This document shows, one piece after another, positions 110 to 50,843 of a DNA stretch of 64,000 nt (position 1 is its first letter; every line of letters begins with the position of its first letter). This DNA comes from Flavobacteriales bacterium (lineage in GTDB: Bacteria; Bacteroidota; Bacteroidia; NS11-12g; UBA955): positions 53,082 to 117,081 of the forward strand of contig CANMCY010000002.1 in the NCBI GenBank assembly GCA_947496375.1. The letters are read 5' to 3'. The notes beneath the pieces were generated by a model. The model worked only from the letters and a program-made list of their open reading frames with translations, was not told the DNA's origin and ran no database searches. The translations under genes and the position numbers were made by a program.

Positions 110-1839
110 GTGTTGTAAGGGGTTAAATGCCTGTTTTCTAACGTATATACAGAATCGCAAATGTCGAAAACTTTTTCGCGATGCGCAATAATGATGAGGG
201 TTTTACCGAGATTTTTTAAGGCAAGCAGGTGAGAAAACAAGATTTTCTCTGTGGCATCGTCCAGCGCACTGCTGGGTTCATCCAGAATCAGCACCTCGCT
301 GTTGTGGTATATGGCCCTTGCCAGCGCTAGTCTCTGTTTTTGCCCTTCACTCAGCCGGGAACCATGATCCCCAACCTCCTCTTTGAGTATGTCGCCGGCG
401 GCTTCAGGCCAGGTAAAGGCGGCCATATCCAGGGCCTTCAGCATCCGGGATTCTTCCTTTTCCTCAGACCCAAAAACCACATTATCTGCGATGCTTCCAT
501 TGATGATGTAAGGATCTTGACCCAAATAGGAAAATAATTCCAGGGCACTGTGCTGCTCATCCATTTTCAGATCATCCACGATTACCTCACCGGATGCGGG
601 CTGATAATAACCCATCAGCAGCTTCACCAGCGTAGATTTCCCGGCACCGGAAATCCCTCGGATACCAACACACTCACCTTTGCGAATGCTAAGGTTCAGG
701 TTGCTGATAATTTCAGGTTTATCGCTAAACGCAAAATGAATGTCTTTCATCACTATTTGCTGTTTAAACGTACTGATATTTTTCTGTATATGGGACTTTT
801 CAGCCACCACCGGCCTAAGCTGTTCATAGGTGTATGCACTCAATTTCAGGTGCATTAAACTCTGCAAAACGCGGTTGGCAGCGGGCAACATTCTAAACAC
901 TGCAATGGCAAACAGCGCAGCCAGGGCGCGCACCTGACCTATATTATCACTGGAGAAAAAATAGGCATAAATCACCAGCAGGGTAATGCCCATCAGCGCT
1001 ATCATTTCGTTCACCCTGAACGGCAATGTCTGCAGGTTGATAGCACGAATTCCGCTTTCGGAAAAACCCCGGAAATGCCGCAGCATTTTTTCACGGAAAT
1101 AATCCTCCGCACCATGGGTGATAATATCAGTGAAACCACCACTGCCGTAGTTAATTTCCCGCAATGCCCTGTCTCTGAATTGTGCTCCGGCCTCGCCCAG
1201 TTCTGTAATTCGCCTTCGCGCAAACCGATTCACCAGAAAAAAACCACCGCCAATCAACCCGACAATGAGAAAAAAGATGAACGGATTGTACCAGGTAAAA
1301 AATGCGGTAAGCAGCACCACAATGGCCATTTCACTCATGAGGGTCAGATACGGGATGTAGCTTCCGGAAACGAAATAAAACGGCGAAAAGAACACCACTT
1401 CGTTAAACCCGGGCCCATCGTGATTGAGGCGGTCGTAGGATCGGTCCTGAAAAACACGGCTATAAGCCCGACCGGAAAGACTCAGCGCAATTTCAGAAGC
1501 GGTTTTACGAATGTATTGCTGCAGAAAAAATGCCAGTATTCCTTTCACCAAAAAAAAGAAAAGAATGATGATGATAAGGGTTTTCAGAAAATTGGCCTCA
1601 GAAGTAAATCCCAGCTGGTGGAAGATAAACCTCAACTTGCTGCTTTTTTCCAGAAAAGAATGGTCCAGTGCCAGCATTAATACGGGAACCATACTTCCCA
1701 AACCAATGATATCCGCAAAGGCAAGTAAGGTCTGACCGAAAATAATCAACCGGGTTCTGCCCTGCTGCACCGGTGTGAGCAATTGCCTGAAACCCCTGTG
1801 GGCGGTGATGATAATTTGCCTTGCGTTCAATGAAGGCAA
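106..1839 (-). CDS. ABC transporter, fused permease/ATP-binding protein (type I exporter, MsbA-like)
   Basis: 577-aa ORF with an N-terminal multi-TM region. The C-terminal ABC ATPase carries Walker A GISGAGKST, the signature LSEGQKQRLALARA and Walker B ILDEPSSALD. Confidence 0.85.
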   Translation of the reverse strand: MPSLNARQIIITAHRGFRQLLTPVQQGRTRLIIFGQTLLAFADIIGLGSMVPVLMLALDHSFLEKSSKLRFIFHQLGFTSEANFLKTLIIIILFFFLVKGILAFFLQQYIRKTASEIALSLSGRAYSRVFQDRSYDRLNHDGPGFNEVVFFSPFYFVSGSYIPYLTLMSEMAIVVLLTAFFTWYNPFIFFLIVGLIGGGFFLVNRFARRRITELGEAGAQFRDRALREINYGSGGFTDIITHGAEDYFREKMLRHFRGFSESGIRAINLQTLPFRVNEMIALMGITLLVIYAYFFSSDNIGQVRALAALFAIAVFRMLPAANRVLQSLMHLKLSAYTYEQLRPVVAEKSHIQKNISTFKQQIVMKDIHFAFSDKPEIISNLNLSIRKGECVGIRGISGAGKSTLVKLLMGYYQPASGEVIVDDLKMDEQHSALELFSYLGQDPYIINGSIADNVVFGSEEKEESRMLKALDMAAFTWPEAAGDILKEEVGDHGSRLSEGQKQRLALARAIYHNSEVLILDEPSSALDDATEKILFSHLLALKNLGKTLIIIAHREKVFDICDSVYTLENRHLTPYNT

Positions 1840-1897
1840 AGGTACGTCGATAAATGGATTTTGTAAATTATGCCCTTTTGTGAACCTTTGCAGTGAA

Positions 1898-2860
1898 ATG
1901 CAGAAAGAAACTGTTTTGGTGATTGGTGCCTGCGGACAGCTGGGTACTGAGCTTGTGGAAGCCCTTAGGGGTATTTATGGCGAAAATCATGTGGTGGCCA
2001 GCGATGTGAAAAAAAGCGATAATGCCGTTTTTCAGACCGGCCCATTTGAAACACTCGATATTTTGGATAAACCCCGGCTGCTGGAAATACTGGAAAAGTA
2101 TAAACCCACCCAGGTGTATCATCTGGCAGCCCTGCTCAGTGCAACGGCTGAAAAAATGCCTGAATTTGCCTGGAAACTCAATATGGACGGTCTTTTTCAC
2201 CTGCTGGATGCAACCCGCGATACCGGCATTGTGAAAAAAGTGTACTGGCCCAGCAGCATTGCGGCTTTCGGGCCGAACACCCCAAGGTTCAACACCCCGC
2301 AGTATGGCGCCATGGATCCAACCACGGTTTACGGCATCAGCAAACTGGCGGGTGAATTGTATGCACAATACTATTTCAACCGCTGGGGCGTAGATACCCG
2401 CTCATTGCGTTATCCCGGGCTGATTGGCTATAAATCAGCTCCCGGCGGCGGCACTACCGACTATGCCGTATCCATCTACCACGATGCACTTACCACCGGC
2501 AAACACCACTGTTTCCTAAAACCCGGCACCATATTGCCCATGCTGTATATGCCCGATGCGCTGAAAGCCACGCTTGACATTATGCATGCGCCGGCAGAAA
2601 AAGTAAAAATCCGAAGCAGCTACAACCTGGCGGGCATGAGTTTTGGTCCGGAAGAAATTACGGCGGCCATTCAAAAGCACATTCCCGGATTTGAGAGCAC
2701 CTACGAACCCGACTACCGACAGGCCATTGCCGATTCATGGCCCGCCGTGATAGACGATAGCAGGGCCCGCGAAGACTGGGGCTGGAAACCCGATTATGAC
2801 CTCGACAGGATGACAGCAGATATGTTGGAAAACCTGAGGAAGTTGAGAGTTAATAGTTGA
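1898..2860 (+). CDS. NAD-dependent epimerase/dehydratase family protein, probable SDR-type L-threonine 3-dehydrogenase
   Basis: N-terminus VLVIGACGQLGTELVEAL (Rossmann motif) and catalytic YGISK (YxxxK). About 320 aa from the ATG at 1898; the listed ORF extends upstream from 1775. Family assignment is solid; the specific substrate is inferred. Confidence 0.6.
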   Translation: MQKETVLVIGACGQLGTELVEALRGIYGENHVVASDVKKSDNAVFQTGPFETLDILDKPRLLEILEKYKPTQVYHLAALLSATAEKMPEFAWKLNMDGLFHLLDATRDTGIVKKVYWPSSIAAFGPNTPRFNTPQYGAMDPTTVYGISKLAGELYAQYYFNRWGVDTRSLRYPGLIGYKSAPGGGTTDYAVSIYHDALTTGKHHCFLKPGTILPMLYMPDALKATLDIMHAPAEKVKIRSSYNLAGMSFGPEEITAAIQKHIPGFESTYEPDYRQAIADSWPAVIDDSRAREDWGWKPDYDLDRMTADMLENLRKLRVNS

Positions 2861-2864
2861 CAGT

Positions 2865-3420
2865 CTACAGTTGATAGTCTGTCCGTGCCTGAATAAGGTT
2901 GACCGTTTTTAGGTTTATTATTTTACACTTATTGTAGCTCCATAGGAGCGAAATATTACTAGCGCCGAAGGCGCGGCATATCGATGTTGTTTCTGCCAAT
3001 ATGCGACCCCCTTCGGGGTCGAGCATTCCATGCGCCGTTCCGGCTAGAGATGTTTGACCCCTTCGGGGTCAGCGCTGCAGGCGTTGTTCAAAAAGACAGG
3101 GGGGTTCTGCCAATAGGACTCGGTAGCCACCATAAATAGTCGTGACCCCGAAGGGGTCAAACATCTCTAGCCCCGTAGGGGCGACATTGGGAATTCTACA
3201 GATAGGTTTAGGAAACAGCCATGTAGCCAGGAACAACCCATCCAAGGTTGGGGTTGCATCGGTATTAAAAGCCAGACATGGAATTTTAAATATAGTTTCG
3301 GTATTAACCATGTACAAGCAGGACCCCAACGGGGTTATACATCTCTAGCCCCGTAGGGGCGAAAAAATCGACCCCGGAGGGGTCGTACAAACGAGGATGA
3401 ATTTTGTGGTCTGTGGGCAT
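2865..3420. repeat. Cluster of GC-stem/tetraloop hairpins with internal inverted and direct repeats
   Basis: Hairpins include gaccccttcggggtc (x2), gaccccgaaggggtc, agccccgtaggggcg (x2), gaccccaacggggtt, cgaccccggaggggtcg and gcgccgaaggcgcgg. ggctagagatgtttgacccc (~3036-3055) is the inverse of ggggtcaaacatctctagcc (~3153-3172). catctctagccccgtaggggcga is directly repeated at ~3163 and ~3340. Confidence 0.8.
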
Positions 3421-3661
3421 GCCAACCACGTTTCTATGGATGAGAAAACGTATATGCCTGAATTAAAGTGCTGCAAGTATGGTAATCGCCCCTTTAAAAA
3501 ACAACAATATAAACATTTTTATTCGTAGATATTTATTATTTTTGTGGTGCGGGGTTATTGAACTACATTTTCCTTGGTGCGCTCAAGTGATTAAATATGA
3601 ATTTCATTTCGGGTCAATGCTGTTATCCCAATAACCTTTCGACTGATATAATTCAACCTAC

Positions 3662-4525
3662 ATGGAACTGGCGTTACAAAACATAGAAAGTAGAATTTTT
3701 AACCTACGTGGCCAACAGGTAATGCTGGATAGTGATTTGGCAGAAATGTATCAAACAGAAACGAAATACATCAACCGGGCTGTACATAGAAATCCAAGTC
3801 GGTTTCCGTCAGCTTTTGCCTTTCAACTTACTGATGATGAATGGAAATCTTTAAGGTTCCAAATTGGCACTTCAAGAGCAACCCATGGTGGCAGAAGAAA
3901 AGTCCCTACCGTTTTTACCGAACAGGGTGTATCCATGCTATCGGCGGTTCTTAATACAGCAGTGGCCATTGATGTAAGCATCCAAATCATACAAGCCTTT
4001 GTAGCCATGCGCAGAACCTTGGGTAACTTACATGGCCTCTTACAACGCCTGGAGGGTTTGGAAATTAAGCAATTACAAACCGATAGCAAACTGGAGTTGA
4101 TATTGAGTGCTTTAGAAACCAATACCTCACCCAAACAAGGTGTTTTTTTTGAAGGACAGCTGTTTGATGCCCATGTATTTGCCAGCGACATTATTAAAAA
4201 AGCGAATAAGAGTCTGATATTAATTGACAACTATGTAGACGAAACCTCACTGTTGTTGCTCAGTAAGCGAAAAAAAGGCGTTAGCTGCACCGTGCATACC
4301 CATCTGCGTCCTGTATTGAAAAAAGACTTGGAGAAACACAACCAACAATATCCCAGCATCAATATCATTGAAAACAGTAGCAGTCATGACCGATTTTTAA
4401 TCATTGATAATTCTCACCTATATCACATTGGCGCTTCGCTGAAAGATTTGGGTAATAAATGTTTCGCCTTCAGCAGAATGGATGATGTTTTGGGTGATAT
4501 AAAAATGAAATTATTAAAAGTCTGA
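3662..4525 (+). CDS. ORF6N domain-containing protein (KilA-N-like DNA-binding N-terminus), C-terminal domain unknown
   Basis: N-terminal ~110 aa (RIFNLRGQQVMLDSDLAEMYQTETKYINRAVHRNPSRFPSAFAFQLTDDEW...GGRRKVPTVFTEQGVSMLSAVLNTAVAIDVSIQIIQAF) matches the ORF6N family that is abundant in Bacteroidota accessory regions. Confidence 0.7.
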   Translation: MELALQNIESRIFNLRGQQVMLDSDLAEMYQTETKYINRAVHRNPSRFPSAFAFQLTDDEWKSLRFQIGTSRATHGGRRKVPTVFTEQGVSMLSAVLNTAVAIDVSIQIIQAFVAMRRTLGNLHGLLQRLEGLEIKQLQTDSKLELILSALETNTSPKQGVFFEGQLFDAHVFASDIIKKANKSLILIDNYVDETSLLLLSKRKKGVSCTVHTHLRPVLKKDLEKHNQQYPSINIIENSSSHDRFLIIDNSHLYHIGASLKDLGNKCFAFSRMDDVLGDIKMKLLKV

Positions 4526-4632
4526 ATACAAAAAAGAGAACCTAAAAATGAGGGGGCTTGGAATGTGTTAAAAGAAAAATAGCGCGTTCCGCCTTTTCCC
4601 ATCTCTAACATTTCTGTATTACCTTTACCCTC

Positions 4633-5820
4633 ATGTCCGCCGGTGCCATTACCCGCAGCATCTGGGTGCTTTCCCTGGTGAGCCTGTTTACCGACATGGC
4701 CTCTGATATGCTCTACCCCGTGATGCCCGCATACCTTCGCAGCATCGGATTTAGCGTGGCCTTTATCGGGTTGCTGGAAGGCATTGCTGAAGCCGCCGCC
4801 GGACTGAGCAAGGGCTACTTCGGCTACTGGAGCGATATGAGCGGAAAACGCCTGCCCTTTGTGCGACTGGGCTACACCCTCAGCGCGCTTTCCAAACCCC
4901 TTATGGCCGCCATGACTTTTCCTTTGTGGATTTTCTTAGTACGCACCCTCGACCGGCTGGGTAAGGGCATGCGCACCGGCGCCCGCGATGCCATCCTCGC
5001 TGATGCCTCTACCGATGGTAACCGTGGTAAAGTTTTTGGCTTCCACCGCAGCATGGATACCGTGGGTGCAGCACTGGGACCGGCTCTGGCACTGATATGG
5101 CTGTATTTTCGTCCCGGAGATTACATCCCCCTGTTTTTTATCGCCTTCCTGCCGGGCATCATCTCCGTGCTGCTGTTGTTTACCCTCAAAGAACAAAACA
5201 ACCTTGCCCCGCAAGGCAAAACCATCACCTTTAGTGACAGTATGCGATGGCTCAAAACTGCAACGCCCGCATACCGCACCCTGTTATGGGGTCTGCTGCT
5301 GTTTGCCTCCATCAACAGCGCTGAAATTTTTCTGTTGCTTCGCGCCAAAGATCTGGGCATGAGCGACGCCGGCGTTGTAGGACTCTACATTTTCTTCAAC
5401 CTCATTTTTGCCCTGCTGGCCTATCCCCTCGGTCGCCTCTCCGATACCATGGGCATGAAACGGATTTTCCTATTGGGACTGGCCCTGTTCGCAATCACTT
5501 ACCTGGGCATGGCCCTGCTTAGTTCCACTACTGCCATCATTGCGCTGTTCTTTGTTTATGGGGGATTTGCTGCTGCCACCGACGGACTTGCGAAGGCATG
5601 GATTAGCAAGGTGTGCGGCCCCCGTGAAAAAGCCGTAGGACTGGGCACATTTGCCGGGCTGCAAAGTCTGTCGTTGCTGCTGGCCAGCGTTTGGGCCGGC
5701 TTGCTGTGGGATATCGCAGGCCCTATGACCGTTTTTCTGCTGACCGCCGGCCTAAGCATTCCCGTGGGTTTGTATTTCCTGTTGAAGGTGAAGGAAATCG
5801 ACCCGACCGAAAAACCTTAG
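4633..5820 (+). CDS. MFS transporter
   Basis: 395 aa with about 12 predicted hydrophobic helices and MFS-like loop motifs (GxLSDRxGxR-like: GYWSDMSGKR, and later GRLSDTMGMKR). Confidence 0.75.
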   Translation: MSAGAITRSIWVLSLVSLFTDMASDMLYPVMPAYLRSIGFSVAFIGLLEGIAEAAAGLSKGYFGYWSDMSGKRLPFVRLGYTLSALSKPLMAAMTFPLWIFLVRTLDRLGKGMRTGARDAILADASTDGNRGKVFGFHRSMDTVGAALGPALALIWLYFRPGDYIPLFFIAFLPGIISVLLLFTLKEQNNLAPQGKTITFSDSMRWLKTATPAYRTLLWGLLLFASINSAEIFLLLRAKDLGMSDAGVVGLYIFFNLIFALLAYPLGRLSDTMGMKRIFLLGLALFAITYLGMALLSSTTAIIALFFVYGGFAAATDGLAKAWISKVCGPREKAVGLGTFAGLQSLSLLLASVWAGLLWDIAGPMTVFLLTAGLSIPVGLYFLLKVKEIDPTEKP

Positions 5821-5876
5821 TCATCTGTGTTTGCTGCGGATTTATAAAAATAACTTGTGAATAATATTACAAGTTG

Positions 5877-5884
5877 TACATTTG
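5877..5884 (+). promoter_or_regulatory. Bacteroidota sigma-A -7 box (TACATTTG, TAnnTTTG consensus) for the PKD lipoprotein gene
   Basis: Motif read directly from the sequence. The ATG at 5907 lies ~23 nt downstream. A 6-bp inverted repeat acttgt...acaagt sits just upstream. Confidence 0.45.
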
Positions 5885-5906
5885 TAATACAAAAAATACT
5901 AATATC

Positions 5907-6620
5907 ATGAAAAACATTAATATTTTACTTTTTGCATCTATGTTGTCACTATGTTTTGCTACAGCATGCAAAAAAGAAAAGGCGAAGCTGCAGCCAGTTG
6001 CTGACTTTATTTATTCAGGTAACAATATCCCGGCTCCTTGTACCGTTACATTTAACAATATCTCTACAAATGCTTCCAGTTACACATGGGATTTTGGAGA
6101 TAATAGCACATCGAGTCAGAAAAGTCCACAGCACACCTACTCAATGGGTGGCGTATACACTGTAAAATTGACCGCAACCGGTGAAGGAGGTTCTAATACT
6201 ACTTCAAAAACGGTTAACATTCAAAATGCACCAACAAAATGCTTCATAAAATCAGTAACTCTTAATGCAATGCCATTTACGGATGGAGCTGGTGCTGGTT
6301 GGGATCCCTTTGATGGACCAGATGTTTTTATACAAATTAAAAATGATGCTGGAACTATCCTTTTTGATGCTACTTCGGCAAGAAAAGAAAATATAGTATC
6401 CACCAATTTACCGATAAAGTGGAATATTACTACTCCAATTGAAGTAACACCCTTGAATGTTAGAAGGAATATTTATTTATACGATTTTGACTCGTTCGAT
6501 CCCAATGATTTAATTGGAGGAGTTGGCTTTTTCCCAAGTTCATTTACTGCGGGCTATCCAAATAGCGCAATGGTTACTTATCAGGGTGTAACTTTTGTTT
6601 TAGAATTACAATGGCAATAA
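5907..6620 (+). CDS. PKD domain-containing lipoprotein
   Basis: Lipoprotein signal MKNINILLFASMLSLCFATAC. PKD-like segment YTWDFGDNSTSSQKSPQHTYSMGGVYTVKLTATGEGG. Confidence 0.65.
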   Translation: MKNINILLFASMLSLCFATACKKEKAKLQPVADFIYSGNNIPAPCTVTFNNISTNASSYTWDFGDNSTSSQKSPQHTYSMGGVYTVKLTATGEGGSNTTSKTVNIQNAPTKCFIKSVTLNAMPFTDGAGAGWDPFDGPDVFIQIKNDAGTILFDATSARKENIVSTNLPIKWNITTPIEVTPLNVRRNIYLYDFDSFDPNDLIGGVGFFPSSFTAGYPNSAMVTYQGVTFVLELQWQ

Positions 6621-6692
6621 AATACTATGGGGTTGGATTTTAGCCGCAGTGTATTTTGAATTAATGGTTTTCAAAACTGTTACCTTTACAGC

Positions 6693-7472
6693 ATGAAAAA
6701 CCTAAAAACAGCCCTTGTTACCGGTGCTTCGGGAGGCCTGGGACTTGAATTTGCCCGACTGCTGGCGGCAGACGGATACCGCGTTGTGCTGGTGGCACGC
6801 AATGAATCTGCCCTGAGGGATGTGGCTTCAGAACTGCAATCGCTGTATGGCGCAGAAGCCCACTGCTACCCCACAGACCTCTCCAAACCGGAAAACGTGG
6901 AGACCCTGTTACAACAACTTACATCTGACAACCTTAGCATTGATTGCCTGATCAACAATGCCGGTTTTGGCGATGCCGGCTATTTTCTGGATAAGCCGTT
7001 TTCCATGCACCGGGAAATGATGATGCTGAATATGTTCGCCCTTACCCGGCTCACCCATGCCCTGGCCATGGAAATGAAAGCCAAAGGACACGGCTACATC
7101 CTTAACCTGGCCTCTACGGCTGCTTTTCAGCCCGCCCCGGCCTTCGCACTGTATGCTGCCACCAAATCGTTTGTACTCAGCTTCAGCGAAGCACTGCGCT
7201 ACGAACTGCGTCAATCCGGGGTGAGCGTAACGGTATCCTGCCCCGGCCCCACGGAAACGGCTTTTCATGACCGTGCTGCCACCCGCACTTCCAAAATTAT
7301 GCAAATGGGCATGATGAAACCCGAAGTAGTGGCTGAACAGGCCTATAAAGCCCTTAAAGCCGGCAAAAGAAGGGTGGTTCACGGCTGGCTGAATAAGATA
7401 TTGGCCATGAGCGGAAGCTTTACACCCCGTGACGTGCTTATCGCCACTACGCATAAAATGATGAAGCCGTAA
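6693..7472 (+). CDS. SDR family oxidoreductase
   Basis: Short-chain dehydrogenase motifs TGASGGLGLEFA (cofactor binding), NNAGFG and YAATK (YxxxK). Confidence 0.85.
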   Translation: MKNLKTALVTGASGGLGLEFARLLAADGYRVVLVARNESALRDVASELQSLYGAEAHCYPTDLSKPENVETLLQQLTSDNLSIDCLINNAGFGDAGYFLDKPFSMHREMMMLNMFALTRLTHALAMEMKAKGHGYILNLASTAAFQPAPAFALYAATKSFVLSFSEALRYELRQSGVSVTVSCPGPTETAFHDRAATRTSKIMQMGMMKPEVVAEQAYKALKAGKRRVVHGWLNKILAMSGSFTPRDVLIATTHKMMKP

Positions 7473-20842: not shown

Positions 20843-21190
20843 CTACGCCGTGTGGTTGGTGTCCCGCCAATCACTGTTTTAGACAGTCGGGGATGACGCC
20901 AACCGTAGGGTAAATCTATGATTAATCCGTTATTTCACTCCTTCGGAGTTCCGTGTATCGATTATGGCATTTTCTATGAAAATGCCGCTCCTTCGGAGCT
21001 AAGCAAACCCTTTTGCGACCTGTACCGTCGCCGTGTGGTTGGCGTCCCTGCCAATCAATGTTTTAGGTGGTCGGGGATGACGCCAACCGTAGGGTAAATC
21101 TATTATTAATCCGTTATTTCACTCCTTCGGAGTTCCGTGTATCGATTATGGCATTTTCTACAAAAATGCCGCTCCTCCGGAGCTAACACC
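20843..21190. repeat. Two tandem ~182-bp copies of the dispersed hairpin-module repeat
   Basis: Unit runs cgccgtgtggttggYg...cactgttttag...ccaaccgtaggg...cactccttcggagtt...ggcattttcta(tg/ca)aaaatgcc...gctcc(ttcg/tccg)gagc. Copies begin at 20847 and 21029. Further hairpins gccccgtaggggcg and gcgccgtaggtgcggc follow at 21249-21315. Confidence 0.85.
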
Positions 21191-21368
21191 CATGGCTGTC
21201 CGTCGGGCTTCAGGTTCGTATTTCCGACAAACAAGCAGGGCACATCAAGCCCCGTAGGGGCGATATCTTAATAACACCGTCTAATAACCACACCTCAGCG
21301 CCGTAGGTGCGGCATATACAACGCCGATAACGCAGTAAACCTGCTGATATACCTGAAATAGAACTCCC

Positions 21369-48115: not shown

Positions 48116-48179
48116 AAATTAATTGGTTTTTTAATAAAACCCTTTATCTAAATGCATTTCATGGGTGTATTTTCGCCCC

Positions 48180-49607
48180 ATGAAACTCACGGTTTGGGGT
48201 GCAGCACAGCAGGTTACCGGCAGCAAGCATTTATTGGAATTGCCCGGTGGCACGCGGGTGCTGGTGGATTGCGGCCTAGACTATGATAAACGCAGTGAGT
48301 TTGAAGAACGCAACAGCCGTTTTCCTTTTGATCCCAAAAGCATTGATTTGCTGATATTGACGCATGCCCACATCGACCACAGTGGCAATGTTCCCAACCT
48401 GATCCGTCAGGGTTTTAGCGGTAAAATATTGTGTACACCGCCTACACTGGAGCTCAGCGACTACCTGCTGCAGGATAGTCTGAATATACAGCGCATGGAA
48501 ATTGCCGCTAAGATGAAGGCGCTGAAGCGTAAACACAATAAAAAAGGAAAACACTACGGTGGCAGCGAGCCTCAGCCGCTGTATGCCCGCAAGCACATAG
48601 CGGACATGCTGGACATGGCCCTGCTGATGGAATACGGACACAAATACGAATTCAACGAAGAACTCAGCGTAGAGTTTCTGCAGGCCGGACATATTTTGGG
48701 TGCCGGCAGTGCGGTGCTGCATGTGAAAACACCCGAAGGTGTTAAAACCATTGGTTTTACCGGAGATCTGGGCAATTACCAAAGCAAACTGGTGCCCGAC
48801 CCACAACCCATGCCTCAGCCGGATTATATCATTTCCGAAAGCACTTACGGGGGCCGGAATCATGTGGTTTCGCCCATGCGTGCAGAAGAAGAACTGCTAA
48901 AGCATGTGCAGGAAACCTGCGTGGAAAAGGGCGGTAAGCTGGTGATTCCCGCGTTTAGTGTGGGGCGCACACAGGCCATTATTTTCACACTGAATCAGCT
49001 TTACAGGGCGGGCAGGTTTCCCAATGTAAAGGTGTTTACGGATAGTCCTTTGGCCATTCGCAGCACCTCGGTATATCAGCATAATGTAGACCACCTGAAT
49101 GAGGAGGCGGCTGCATTTCAGAAGCAATATGGCTCATTGTTTGATTTTCCGCTGTTGCATGTGGTGGAACACGAAAGAGAAAGCGATTTACTGAGCGTAT
49201 TGCCGGAGCCCTGTGTGATTATCTCCGCAGCGGGTATGGTAGAGGGAGGCAGGATTCAGATGCACGTGAGAAACAATGTGGGCGATGCACGCAACACCAT
49301 ACTGATAGCCGGTTTTTGTGCCGAGGGAACGCTGGGACACCGCTTGTTGCAGGGGCAGAATTTTGTGGAGATTAACTACAAGCAAAGGCCTGTGCGTGCG
49401 GATATCAGAAGAACGGATGCATTTAGCGCCCACCCGGATCATGCGGGTCTGTTGAAATACCTAAAAGCCAGTGCGGGCAAGAATACCCGAGGAATATTCC
49501 TGGTGCACGGAGATGCCCGTCAGATGGAGCAACTGGCTGCCGATGTAGATTTCAGCCGCGCTATTATCCCTGTAAAAGGCCATAGCTACAACCTGATGGA
49601 GATGTAA
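48180..49607 (+). CDS. MBL-fold metallo-hydrolase, beta-CASP ribonuclease family
   Basis: The HxHxDH motif (LTHAHIDHSGN) and downstream beta-CASP motifs are present. 475 aa from the ATG at 48180. Confidence 0.75.
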   Translation: MKLTVWGAAQQVTGSKHLLELPGGTRVLVDCGLDYDKRSEFEERNSRFPFDPKSIDLLILTHAHIDHSGNVPNLIRQGFSGKILCTPPTLELSDYLLQDSLNIQRMEIAAKMKALKRKHNKKGKHYGGSEPQPLYARKHIADMLDMALLMEYGHKYEFNEELSVEFLQAGHILGAGSAVLHVKTPEGVKTIGFTGDLGNYQSKLVPDPQPMPQPDYIISESTYGGRNHVVSPMRAEEELLKHVQETCVEKGGKLVIPAFSVGRTQAIIFTLNQLYRAGRFPNVKVFTDSPLAIRSTSVYQHNVDHLNEEAAAFQKQYGSLFDFPLLHVVEHERESDLLSVLPEPCVIISAAGMVEGGRIQMHVRNNVGDARNTILIAGFCAEGTLGHRLLQGQNFVEINYKQRPVRADIRRTDAFSAHPDHAGLLKYLKASAGKNTRGIFLVHGDARQMEQLAADVDFSRAIIPVKGHSYNLMEM

Positions 49608-49654
49608 CCTCTGTGTCCGAAGTTGGTAGACTTCGTGAAGCGGTGTAACTTTTC

Positions 49655-50290
49655 TATGCCACTCCTACGGAGTTGAGGATTCGTTTTGCGGCTGTGTTAT
49701 TAATATATCACCCCTATGGGGCTTTATGTGCGTTGCTTGCAGGCAATACGAACCTAAGACCCACCTTGCAGCACATTTCAGCTCCGTAGGAGCGGCATTT
49801 TTATAGAAAATGCCATAATTGATACACGAAACTCCGAAGGAGTGAAATAGCGGATTAATCATAGAGTTTCTATGCCGCACCTACGGCGCTGAGGGGACGT
49901 TTTCAGGCGGTGTTATTACTATGTCGCCCCGATGGGGCTTATGCGTCCTGCTTTTAGAAAACACAAACCTGACGTAAACCGGCAAGCCATGCATTTCAGC
50001 TCCGTAGGAGCGGCATTTTAATAAAAAACGCCATAATGGATACACCAAGCGCCGTAGGTGTGACATAACGAGCCAATAACCTTCACAGCGGCTGTCACCC
50101 TCCGGTTTGCGGCCTCCCAAAATGCCTAAAACAGTGATTGGCGGGGACGCCAACTACACGGCGACGGTGTAGGTCGCACAAGGGTTTGTATTAGCTCCGA
50201 AGGAGCGGCATTTTTATAGAAAATGCCATAATCGATACACGGAACTCCGAAGGAGTGAAATAACGGGCATCCGACGCCGCCACACAGCCG
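49655..50290. repeat. Array of >=3 copies (reverse orientation) of the dispersed hairpin-module repeat
   Basis: agctccgtaggagcggcatttttatagaaaatgccataattgatacacgaaactccgaaggagtgaaatagcggattaatcatagagtttc is the reverse complement of the unit at 20900-21000. Further copies lie at ~49997-50065 and ~50111-50290, the latter including the ctaaaacagtgattggcggggacgccaactacacggcgacgg module. Confidence 0.85.
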
Positions 50291-50354: not shown

Positions 50355-50843
50355 TCAGACCACCATCCTTCTAAAAAATGACCTAAACTGCCGCGTTTTG
50401 CGGAATTCAGCAAAGACCTCCTCCGGGATTGCATAAATATCAATGTGTTTATCATACAACGCATTATAAATGTATATCACTTCATCAAAAGTAAGTGGGG
50501 GTTTAAACTCCTGTATCTTAGCTATTACCTCCGCTGCCACCAGCGGCGCATGCATCGCTTCCCTGACCTTGCGGGCGGCAGCACGGCGGTACCATTCGGA
50601 GCGGATGGGTTCATCATAAATAAAATAATGCGTCAAGCCCTCCGTCTGACTATCCAATAGTCTGTCCATATTCTCTTCGCTAAAACAACCCAGTGAACGC
50701 AATTCCTTTTGCAATGCAAAAATCTGGTGTAGCTGTTTCATGAATTCCTGCGGCGGATAACGCATATCACCCTGCCGGTTTTTCGCTTTAAGTTTCAAAT
50801 AAACATCCAGGTATTTATCAATAAAAAAACCCTTGTTTTTCAT
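50355..50843 (-). CDS. hypothetical protein
   Basis: 162-aa ORF with coding-like composition and no signal peptide. No motif recognised. Confidence 0.4.
   Translation of the reverse strand: MKNKGFFIDKYLDVYLKLKAKNRQGDMRYPPQEFMKQLHQIFALQKELRSLGCFSEENMDRLLDSQTEGLTHYFIYDEPIRSEWYRRAAARKVREAMHAPLVAAEVIAKIQEFKPPLTFDEVIYIYNALYDKHIDIYAIPEEVFAEFRKTRQFRSFFRRMVV

Follow-up and report, generated by a model that had tools for sequence, protein, structure and literature searches.

A polymorphic, probably BIME-like array of mini-hairpin repeats between two convergent genes of a Flavobacteriales bacterium, and the match of its units to the flanks of a Y1 transposase gene in other lineages

We identified a non-coding mosaic of repeat modules at positions 49651-50266 of a 64,000-nucleotide stretch of a 232-kb Flavobacteriales MAG contig (CANMCY010000002.1; the whole stretch is called the window below). 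This array is probably a BIME-like cluster of REP-type elements and a hotspot of recombination and copy-number change, with units that match the inverted doublets on either side of a 153-aa, apparently single-copy Y1 HUH transposase gene in various phyla. The evidence comprises the anatomy of the array, the dispersal of its units in the window, covariation in the hairpin stem, length polymorphism in whole periods, and an oriented association of the units with a Y1 gene in other lineages. There is nothing unusual about the array as such; the link of its units to a Y1 subclass reported without REPs may be new.

The array occupies a gap of 747 nt (~750 bp) between the ORF of a beta-CASP hydrolase, in which the Pfam domains Lactamase_B, Beta-Casp, and RMMBL were annotated, and a 162-aa ORF with no Pfam match. 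An earlier note on this DNA, made from the sequence alone, had described a non-coding repeat array between convergent genes, and this description proved real. Its repeat modules and short GC hairpins were recovered as 3 copies of module B, 2 copies of module A, and 6 inverted-repeat pairs, and the two hairpins that it quoted, cacccctatggggct and gtcgccccgatggggct, correspond to the second hairpins of modules A1 and A2, respectively. The parts of the locus were as follows, with modules and linkers given without strand:

48165-49607, + strand: upstream flanking gene, 480 aa, metallo-beta-lactamase / beta-CASP / RMMBL hydrolase (ORF list; Pfam on an identical product)
49651-49724: module A1, two reverse units (direct-repeat family D2, unit scan, and sequence reading)
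49725-49779: linker 1, joining A1 to B1
49780-49853: module B1, two forward units and an AT-rich hairpin (direct-repeat family D1 and unit scan)
49867-49940: module A2, two reverse units (repeat family, unit scan, and sequence reading)
49941-49997: linker 2, joining A2 to B2
49998-50071: module B2, two forward units and an AT-rich hairpin (repeat families D1 and I3, and unit scan)
50072-50192: module C, 121 nt, a lineage-specific palindromic filler with one copy in the array
50193-50266: module B3, two forward units and an AT-rich hairpin (repeat family and unit scan)
50355-50843, - strand: gene on the downstream flank, transcribed towards the beta-CASP gene and encoding a hypothetical protein of 162 aa (ORF list)

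The modules follow the order A-B-A-B-C-B, with the doublets of units oriented reverse, forward, reverse, forward, and, beyond C, forward, and with linkers conserved between copies. Module B (74 nt; starts at 49780, 49998, and 50193) is 84-95% identical among its copies, and module A (74 nt; starts at 49651 and 49867) is 81% identical between its two. The reverse units of A1 are ATGCC-ACTCC-TAC-GGAGT at 49656-49673, found by the unit scan, and ATATC-ACCCC-TAT-GGGGC at 49705-49722, read from the sequence, while those of A2 are ATGCC-GCACC-TAC-GGCGC (49872-49889) and ATGTC-GCCCC-GAT-GGGGC (49921-49938). Module B1 carries the forward units GCTCC-GTA-GGAGC-GGCAT, followed by T-TTT-ATAG (49781-49798), and ACTCC-GAA-GGAGT-GAAAT (49831-49848), with the AT-rich hairpin at 49794-49814. 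The corresponding elements are at 49999-50016, 50049-50066 (GCGCC-GTA-GGTGT-GACAT), and 50012-50032 in B2 and at 50194-50211, 50244-50261, and 50207-50227 in B3. The ends of linker 1 are complementary (ATGTGC / GCACAT), the A-linker-B blocks have 20-nt inverted ends (pairs I1 and I3), with the outer units of A2 and B2 complementary over 20 nt at 90%, and A-linker-B is predicted to fold into one long hairpin. Module C holds the hairpins TTGGCG-GGGA-CGCCAA and GCGAC-GGTGTAG-GTCGC.

The claim that the stretch has no plausible ORF also stood. The only mechanical ORFs inside it, on the - strand at 49665-49880 and 49881-50153, consist wholly of repeat, and their frame is broken by +1/-1 indels in the alignment with strain L002, so coding potential was rejected. 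A simple tandem repeat or satellite was rejected as well, since Tandem Repeats Finder reported nothing; the array periods are just ~66% alike, which explains the blank result and makes the array a mosaic and not a satellite. A CRISPR array was rejected on anatomy, as the modules are 74-121 nt long, diverged, and present in both orientations, with intervening sequence that is itself repeated.

The basic unit is an 18-nt mini-hairpin, a G+C-rich stem of 5 bp closed by a GNA triloop and followed by the 3' tail G-R-M-A-T. The tail often continues as N-TTT-RTAG, an extension that every B module has in its first unit. The core 18-mer GCTCCGWAGGAGCGGCAT had 13 matches in the window at ≤3 mismatches, compared with 0.04 expected. 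Watson-Crick pairs filled 94% of the stem positions in a set of 145 units that were non-redundant and anchored on the tail, compared with 65% when partners were shuffled, and stem pair 3 was T-A in 73 units, C-G in 37, and G-C in 28; judging from these aligned sequences, the hairpin is under selection. The predicted fold of the array as RNA was far stronger than that of shuffled sequences (z = -8.4). B1 was predicted to form three hairpins (z = -4.6), and module B folded as DNA gave z = -4.6 and -4.9, with both strands folding equally well. The two strands had 11 and 8 G-T wobble pairs, and this lack of strand bias does not single out a substrate strand. No GTAG is found at the 5' foot of the stem; the conserved flank is the 3' tail G-R-C-A-T-N-TTT-RTAG, in which GTAG or ATAG sits ~9 nt 3' of the stem.

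The same modules recur at three other places in the window, and a further cluster of related mini-hairpins is found near its start:

2937-3388, no strand assigned: further cluster of related mini-hairpins
17527-17677, - strand: C'-B element on its own, beginning at the stop codon of uvrB
19773-19839, - strand: lone fragment of module C, immediately upstream of uvrB
20846-21321, - strand: second array of the same family, A-B-C-B-C', in the orientation opposite to the first array

The second array is ~80% identical to 49871-50266 across 400 nt, and the units at 2937-3388 include GCGCC-GAA-GGCGC-GGCAT and GCCCC-GTA-GGGGC-GACAT, along with a 28-nt inverted repeat around GACCCC-TTC-GGGGTC. In the 64-kb window, at least 17 strict units were identified at five intergenic places (the main array and four others) and none inside a long ORF. 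Module B is also present without module A, as in the uvrB element, and co-directional gene junctions also carry units in both orientations. Clusters of this hairpin family account for the three largest non-coding, ORF-free gaps of the window; one of them, at 2861-3661 (801 nt), is longer than the gap described here, which the earlier note had taken for the largest non-coding stretch.

We compared 12 orthologous loci, with flanks 0-4% apart and eight distinct haplotypes 2-4% apart, for the copy-number variation that the earlier note had suggested looking for, and found whole-period differences among them. The array had three lengths, 531 nt (A-B-C-B), 747 nt (A-B-A-B-C-B), and ~960 nt (A-B-A-B-C-B-A-B), all alleles coming from metagenome assemblies in which repeats are possibly mis-assembled and the short allele being seen once only. 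The alleles differ by whole periods of ~215 nt at two separate positions of the array. The additional A copy of the long allele is just 75-81% like A1 and A2, which makes it neither a fresh insertion nor a fresh duplication, and the length alleles are fully explained by homologous recombination, so a transposase is not required for them. After uvrB, no length change was found, the length being the same in the one strain recovered.

Further, one short-read contig terminates inside the array, and in relative L003 (81% identity) the array continues into the DNA that adjoins the second, oppositely oriented array of the window, L003 being collinear with array 1 of the window fused to the array 2 side. 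Module C and the linkers were restricted to the window lineage and L003. The suggestion of a recombination or insertion hotspot is thus borne out by the three whole-period alleles, the contig break, and the array-to-array junction, and the repeat family accounts for both the short-read contig breaks and the strain length differences at the locus.

An exact 18-mer genome scan returned at least 120 stretches from Verrucomicrobiota, Acidobacteriota, Ignavibacteria, Bacteroidota, and others, compared with a chance expectation of ~35 over the whole collection (our own estimate), and the flanks of the matches held the extended motif and four-hairpin palindromic composites. Foetidibacter luteolus, Niabella, and Hydrotalea were among the matches. 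No published description of the unit was found in the literature searched, which covered the unit sequence and REPs in these phyla; this does not prove that there is none.

Eight loci selected by pattern had an ORF of 153-163 aa beginning MANT(Y/F)..(I/L)Y, most often MANTYTQIY, and further copies of this ORF were recovered by tblastn. It matches Pfam Y1_Tnp (E 1e-23 to 1e-27), and H55 and H57 (HUH), W95-Q96, Y115, Q119, and H122-H123 were invariant in the protein alignment, with YIxNQxxHH as the Y-motif. Most of the eight loci (clearly 5-7) had two forward units upstream and reverse units downstream of the gene. We repeated the comparison without this bias on 80 loci fetched by protein similarity alone. 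Within 150 nt upstream of the gene, a forward unit was present in 59 of 76 loci and a reverse unit in 7 of 76, whereas just downstream a reverse unit was present in 59 of 78 and a forward unit in 9 of 78, the background density of units being 0.14 per kb per strand. The tail consensus at Y1 loci was G-A/G-C/A-A-T-N-T-T-T-R-T-A-G, to which GGCAT-T-TTT-ATAG in the window is an exact fit.

The Y1 gene was also identified in contigs labelled Verrucomicrobiota, Ignavibacteria, and Acidimicrobiia. Each of the four protein variants examined had a constant genomic context wherever it was shown, in several samples; two of the four were at one locus, which leaves three distinct contexts, and in two Verrucomicrobia the gene was at a matching syntenic site. 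The protein fails the NCBIfam REP_Tyr_transpos model (NF047646; 25-41 bits against a cutoff of 80) and passes the IS200 model NF033573 (~66-68 bits against 55), its nearest solved structures are the ISDra2 and IS608 TnpA transposases, and it carries the TnpA-Y1 subclass 1.2 signature, with HuH DH[IV]H, WQ, Y---Q--HH, and a conserved C-terminal tail. For the window lineage, tblastn found no Y1 gene in the window or in any of the orthologous loci, a gapped DNA pattern (B-module tail, 30-60 nt, ATGGCNAAYAC) had 0 matches in metagenome contigs, and four abundant freshwater Y1 homologues were all from lineages other than that of the window.

A purely local origin would dispense with a transposase in the lineage altogether: a structured 3' element (a bidirectional terminator or mRNA-stabilising hairpins) would have been tandem-duplicated and spread by recombination, and its likeness to the Y1 flanks would be ancestral or convergent. 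The sufficiency of homologous recombination for the length alleles and the negative searches for a Y1 gene in this lineage fit such an origin, as do the position of the array between convergent 3' ends, the element that begins at the uvrB stop codon, and the forward units, which were flagged as terminator-like (a stem, then GGCATTTTTA). We nevertheless consider it unlikely, as a stem of 5 bp would make a weak intrinsic terminator, units in both orientations also lie at co-directional junctions, and the tail G-R-C-A-T-N-TTT-RTAG has a specificity well beyond that of a U-run and equals the Y1-adjacent tail in several phyla. The earlier note had also proposed a clustered ncRNA locus, in which the array would be a cluster of small ncRNA genes with module B as a three-hairpin sRNA with a U-rich tail, acting as RNA. 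The strong predicted structure and stem covariation are in its favor, and part of the unit is similar to the 3' half of Acido-Lenti-1, a candidate sRNA in Rfam (RF01687), which scored 44.6-44.9 bits, above threshold, in two Verrucomicrobia unit-bearing loci. Its best score in the window, however, was 11.9 bits at 49868-49889 against a gathering threshold of 37, and Rfam over the whole window gave nothing at gathering thresholds and noise only when E was relaxed to 10. The window contains neither tRNA nor tmRNA genes, and the array held neither sigma-70-type promoter sites nor the Bacteroidetes-type TTTG...TAnnTTTG pattern. Both strands of module B fold equally well, and the wobble pairs are without strand preference. 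Units that occur in both orientations and are inverted around a transposase gene suit a family of DNA elements, and the ncRNA proposal, left unsupported, appears improbable.

Two readings that invoke other mobile elements seem less probable still. The A-linker-B blocks could be ordinary MITEs with 20-bp terminal inverted repeats, mobilized by a DDE transposase and inserted side by side, which would agree with the single long hairpin predicted for each block and with outer units that agree within a block (ACTCC-type in A1/B1 and GCGCC-type in A2/B2). But the block edges show no target-site duplication, module B exists without A, the supposed terminal repeat is the Y1-associated hairpin unit itself, and no DDE transposase with these ends was noticed in an unsystematic look among ~230 fetched loci, so we give this reading very little weight. 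Least credible of all is an origin of the units from ordinary multi-copy IS200/IS605 insertion sequences, whose ends would have decayed into PATE-like derivatives. The associated protein does pass the IS200 model and is closest to the ISDra2 and IS608 TnpA structures. In known elements of this kind, though, the left and right end hairpins point the same way on the active strand, whereas here the upstream units are forward and the downstream ones reverse. The four variants keep to fixed contexts, an unsystematic look noticed no tnpB beside the Y1 gene, and subclass 1.2 is reported to be low in copy number and to lack IS properties (Quentin et al. 2018, PMC6006769).

In a BIME-like cluster of REP-type elements, the reading that we prefer, the units would be single-strand DNA hairpin substrates of a Y1 enzyme, presumably encoded in the window lineage as well, which would act on them and seed intergenic copies. 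Once doublets were adjacent, the array could expand and contract by unequal homologous recombination or by slippage between direct copies, and exchange with other arrays would give rise to rearrangements. It would be tolerated at the 3' ends of two convergent genes, where its many hairpins and T-rich tails probably stop or stabilise both transcripts.

We suggest more tentatively, as a reading with somewhat less than even chances, that a pan-phylum REP-like system, so far undescribed, surfaces locally in this array. The subclass 1.2 Y1 protein would be a vertically inherited, low-copy enzyme whose cognate substrate is the near-invariant GNA-triloop mini-hairpin with the tail G-R-C-A-T-N-TTT-RTAG, and this hairpin would have colonised intergenic DNA in Bacteroidota, Verrucomicrobiota, Acidobacteriota, Ignavibacteria, and others. 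To our knowledge, REP/RAYT biology has been worked out nearly all in Proteobacteria. If the pan-phylum reading is true, a second Y1 enzyme-hairpin pairing, sequence-independent of REP/RAYT, would extend this picture to Bacteroidota, Acidobacteria, and the PVC group. Its recognition unit would be unusually conserved, and the hairpin would shape genomes by creating hotspots of copy-number change, breaks in assemblies, and end points of inversions. A unit sequence that stays conserved from phylum to phylum, unlike that of known REPs, would then indicate a host-level and not purely selfish function of the pairing, and enzyme and hairpin together would be a small system in which the recognition of single-strand DNA could be tested. 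The hairpin with its extended tail would also serve as a simple tag for annotating repeats in metagenome-assembled genomes.

The closest parallels are the REP/BIME-RAYT systems and REPINs of Pseudomonas and Enterobacteria, with their many short, imperfect extragenic palindromes of 20-40 nt, seen here as 18-nt units on the scale of the 64-kb window, clusters in alternating orientation, conserved linkers, inverted doublets foldable into one long hairpin, copy-number variation from strain to strain, and a low-copy Y1 HUH gene with inverted flanking units, a gene seen here in other lineages and not found for that of the window. In contrast to those systems, the unit closes its GNA triloop with a stem of only 5 bp, its conserved tag follows the stem as a 3' tail and is not the GTAG (or CGTC) that REPs have at the 5' foot, the partner protein falls in the IS200-like class and outside the RAYT model, and the unit sequence is near-constant across phyla, whereas known REPs vary between genera. 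TIRtrons likewise have tyrosine-transposase (TIRYT) genes between inverted repeats, some of them self-complementary, in dimers or clusters and moderately abundant, but those families bear GGGGWSAS or other sequences and not this hairpin-plus-tail unit (Di Nocera et al. 2013, PMC3733652). Acido-Lenti-1, a candidate non-coding RNA only, was found in Acidobacteria and a PVC phylum (Weinberg et al. 2010, PMC2864571); its 3' half, UAUGCC plus a short G+C hairpin, is similar to a unit in reverse orientation, but its first hairpin is different and its score in the window stays far below threshold.

With IS200/IS605 elements and PATEs the units share a Y1 HUH enzyme and subterminal hairpins that, in those elements, are recognised as single-stranded DNA; here, however, the hairpins are inverted around the gene, the gene is at one fixed place per lineage examined, and the units greatly outnumber it. 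TnpA-Y1 subclass 1.2 is defined by HuH DHxH, WQ, Y---Q--HH, a length of about 148-150 aa, and a specific C-terminal domain, and is listed as "REP: no" with a range of mostly Cyanobacteria and Bacteroidetes (Quentin et al. 2018, PMC6006769). The protein beside the units carries this defining signature, yet oriented hairpin units flank its gene in about three-quarters of the 80 loci, and the contigs labelled Verrucomicrobiota, Ignavibacteria, and Acidimicrobiia lie outside the main range published for the subclass.

The convergent ORFs at 48165-49607 (+) and 50355-50843 (-) are separated by a gap of 747 nt, occupied by a mosaic of hairpin repeats (array 1, 49651-50266) in the order A1-linker-B1-(13 nt)-A2-linker-B2-C-B3, with its doublets oriented reverse, forward, reverse, forward, C, forward. 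A repeat search identified modules A and B, as well as 6 inverted-repeat pairs in the array.

Array 1 and its flanking genes
48165-49607, + strand: beta-CASP ORF (Pfam Lactamase_B, Beta-Casp, RMMBL)
49651 and 49867: module A, 74 nt, 2 copies, 81% identical
49780, 49998, and 50193: module B, 74 nt, 3 copies, 84-95% identical
50072-50192: module C, 121 nt
50355-50843, - strand: second flanking ORF, 162 aa, no Pfam match

Tandem Repeats Finder reported no array here because successive periods are only ~66% alike, and in a related strain, indels of +1 and -1 disrupt the mechanical ORFs within array 1. Both hairpins quoted in an earlier note on this DNA are present, one as the second hairpin of A1 and the other as that of A2; its description of the stretch as the largest non-coding one did not hold, the ORF-free gap at 2861-3661 (801 nt) being longer.

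Every module is built from a common 18-nt unit, in which a three-base loop (GNA in 8 of the 10 array units) sits on a 5-bp stem with C-G as its closing pair and the tail G-R-M-A-T follows, examples being GCTCC-GTA-GGAGC-GGCAT, ACTCC-GAA-GGAGT-GAAAT, and GCGCC-GTA-GGTGT-GACAT. Module B combines 2 forward units with an AT-rich hairpin (GGCATTTT-TATAG-AAAATGCC), and module A comprises 2 reverse-orientation units, the inner ones having the loops ATA or ATC and not GNA. Module B is predicted to fold into three hairpins on either strand (z = -4.6 and -4.9) and A-linker-B into one long hairpin with its outer units matching each other, these being of the same type within each block (ACTCC in A1/B1, GCGCC in A2/B2). 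The whole array folded as RNA gave z = -8.4.

We identified 13 matches to the core 18-mer (up to 3 mismatches) in the window vs. 0.04 expected. All copies of the repeat family in the window are intergenic, and each of its three largest ORF-free gaps is a cluster of the family.

Members of the family elsewhere in the window
20846-21321: second array, A-B-C-B-C', opposite orientation, ~80% identical over 400 nt
17527-17677: C'-B element, starting at the uvrB stop codon
19773-19839: module C fragment
2937-3388: cluster of related mini-hairpins

The last of these lies in 2861-3661, the longest ORF-free gap wholly inside the window, with units at 2962, 3052, 3145, 3170, 3348, and 3371 and the 28-nt inverted repeat CTAGAGATGTTTGACCCCTTCGGGGTCA at about 3053-3080 and 3143-3170. 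Repeat clusters also lie on both sides of a 266-aa ORF at 19860-20660 (-), which sits in a stretch of low G+C content (36%). The contigs that carry an identical gene in other assemblies are only 1.4-1.8 kb long, which points to assembly breaking off in the repeats on either side, and since the corresponding place in the related locus L003 holds a PIN/DUF6364 toxin-antitoxin cassette, 19860-20660 would appear to be a variable cassette site.

The window is part of a 232-kb MAG contig from an uncultured Bacteroidota lineage often encountered in metagenomes. Twelve versions of the array 1 locus, all from metagenome assemblies, represented eight haplotypes with flanks 2-4% apart, and the copy-number variation for which the earlier note had proposed checking the orthologous locus was found there, in the form of three gap lengths.

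Length alleles of the array 1 gap
Short: 531 nt, A-B-C-B, one assembly
Middle: 747 nt, A-B-A-B-C-B, the window and seven other assemblies
Long: ~960 nt, A-B-A-B-C-B-A-B, three independent assemblies

The alleles, all subject to the caveat of metagenome assembly, differ by whole ~215-nt periods at 2 separate places in the array. In the short allele, an A1-type head is joined to an A2-type linker and B2, which is what a deletion through A1/A2 exchange would leave, and the additional A copy in the long allele shares only 75-81% with A1 and A2 and is therefore old and no fresh duplication. A Logan short-read contig matching the window exactly terminates within array 1.

In L003, whose beta-CASP protein is 81% identical, an array again lies 3' of the gene with the modules in the same order as in the window, B'-A-B-A-B-C-B-C', and the array is therefore old. 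Past it, L003 carries a toxin-antitoxin cassette, half an element, and uvrB; positions 1513-6927 are collinear with window 48123-49959 (+) and then with window 21054-17683 (-) by tblastx, and synteny ends directly after uvrB, at the site of the window's C'-B element. This layout is most simply, though only suggestively, read as an inversion or some other rearrangement ending in the window's two oppositely oriented arrays; as an inversion it would span roughly 28 kb.

An exact scan for GCTCCGWAGGAGCGGCAT across one genome per species returned at least 120 stretches, many of those listed holding several matches, vs. ~35 expected by chance over the entire collection by our own estimate. The matches listed belonged mostly to Verrucomicrobiota, Acidobacteriota (Pyrinomonadaceae, Blastocatellia), Ignavibacteria, and Bacteroidota, with some from Desulfobacterales and others, and their flanks contained a longer conserved motif (the hairpin, then G-R-C-A-T-N-TTT-RTAG) and a recurrent four-hairpin palindrome (two forward units, 18-35 nt, two reverse units). 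Among 145 nonredundant tail-anchored units, 94% of stem positions were Watson-Crick vs. 65% with shuffled partners; covariation was clear (e.g., pair 3: T-A 73, C-G 37, G-C 28), and G-T pairs had no strand preference (11 vs. 8). In an Aureispira MAG (L112, about 5534-5700), the bare 25-nt unit GCTCCGTAGGAGCGRCATCTTTAYA is repeated head to tail, so that here the same hairpin plus tail forms a genuine tandem array of short period. Contigs labelled Acidimicrobiia (L029/L077, the former also with a Y1 gene), Bifidobacterium/Bifidobacteriaceae (L020/L076), and Heliobacteriaceae (L096/L113) also held units and composites of the type usual in Acidobacteria or Verrucomicrobia, which could be mis-binning or horizontal transfer. 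The Pyrinomonadaceae chromosome L075 has a group I intron at 4307-4568 (-) (Rfam RF00028, 83 bits), with no relation to the finding.

In eight pattern-selected loci, we identified an ORF of 153-163 aa starting with MANT(Y/F)..(I/L)Y, most often MANTYTQIY, and tblastn recovered further loci with such an ORF. It matched Pfam Y1_Tnp (E 1e-23 to 1e-27), scored above the NCBIfam IS200 cutoff (about 66-68 bits vs. 55) and below the RAYT cutoff (25-41 bits vs. 80), and its closest solved structures were the ISDra2 and IS608 TnpA transposases. The HUH histidines, WQ, and the Y-motif YIxNQxxHH are invariant in the alignment and are the signature of TnpA-Y1 subclass 1.2, described as a low-copy group without IS properties found mostly in Cyanobacteria and Bacteroidetes and entered as "REP: no" (Quentin et al. 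2018, PMC6006769). At least 7,998 homologues were found at E <1e-10, the best-scoring 120 of these being 78-100% identical to the query; the JGI label "RayT" on them is a generic COG name and carries no evidential weight.

The Y1 gene lies amid a four-hairpin composite in the majority of the eight loci, clearly so in five to seven: the stop codon is followed by reverse units, and of the two forward units upstream of the gene, the inner one is typically 5-30 nt away from the ATG. An unbiased test on 80 further metagenome loci, picked by protein similarity alone, gave a forward unit within 150 nt upstream in 59 of 76 loci (reverse, 7 of 76) and a reverse unit just downstream in 59 of 78 (forward, 9 of 78), within 40 nt of the stop in 48 of the 59 positive loci; unit density beyond 500 nt from the gene was 0.14 per kb per strand. 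Beside Y1 genes, the tails have the consensus G-A/G-C/A-A-T-N-T-T-T-R-T-A-G-A-A, and the window tail GGCAT-T-TTT-ATAG-AAA fits it exactly. Four Bacteroidota Y1 variants that were looked up each had one constant gene neighbourhood at all listed places, drawn from several samples, amounting to three distinct contexts, as 2 variants share a locus. Two Verrucomicrobia MAGs carry the gene at one syntenic site (L041 977-1444, L044 5522-5989), directly after a gene ending ...IFDELPVP, which fits vertical inheritance over transposition. At about 2100-2600 in L233/L234 (GCA_019136675.1 and a related ENA contig), at least 10 forward units GCCCC-ATC-GGGGC-GAWAT-CATAATAG with a period of ~58 nt directly follow the Y1 gene and its reverse units. 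Judged from exact-match units, L033 (3921-4379, -; Bacteroidetes MAG Ja_bin-6113) departs from the usual layout, the nearest units seeming reverse upstream and forward downstream. No Y1 gene for the window lineage was found in the window, in orthologous loci, or by a lineage-specific pattern.

Array 1 very probably consists of clustered members of a dispersed family of hairpin repeats, and it likely belongs to the Y1-associated family; the chances are even that the cognate enzyme is both present and active in the window lineage. The units would be putative single-strand hairpin substrates of the Y1 enzyme, whose part was perhaps the seeding of units and not these particular length changes, which require no more than unequal homologous exchange between direct copies. 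A putative role of array 1 as a two-way terminator or 3' stabiliser of the convergent genes is plausible. The Rfam motif Acido-Lenti-1 (RF01687) had no match in the window (best score 11.9 bits vs. a threshold of 37), and only its 3' half is shared with the reverse unit. It exceeded the threshold in 2 Verrucomicrobiia MAGs (L011 5359-5404, L036 246-292), a phylum absent from its original description, each hit adjoining a reverse-type hairpin GCCCC-TGCC-GGGGC.

As a repeat cluster and polymorphism hotspot, array 1 is nothing out of the ordinary. The pairing of the mini-hairpin unit with a subclass-1.2 Y1 protein may be new, as may the fact that the unit is nearly identical from phylum to phylum; a literature search returned no description of either, which is no proof of absence. 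As in REP/BIME-RAYT systems, the hairpins are dispersed, are extragenic throughout the window, form clusters of alternating orientation and inverted doublets, and in other lineages stand in inverted orientation on both sides of an apparently low-copy Y1 gene. Since anatomy and context match that pattern, we read array 1 as a BIME-like cluster. Against this reading, module C and the linkers are lineage-specific, and, unlike in classical REP/RAYT systems, the units lack the 5' GTAG foot, and the partner Y1 protein lies outside the RAYT clade.
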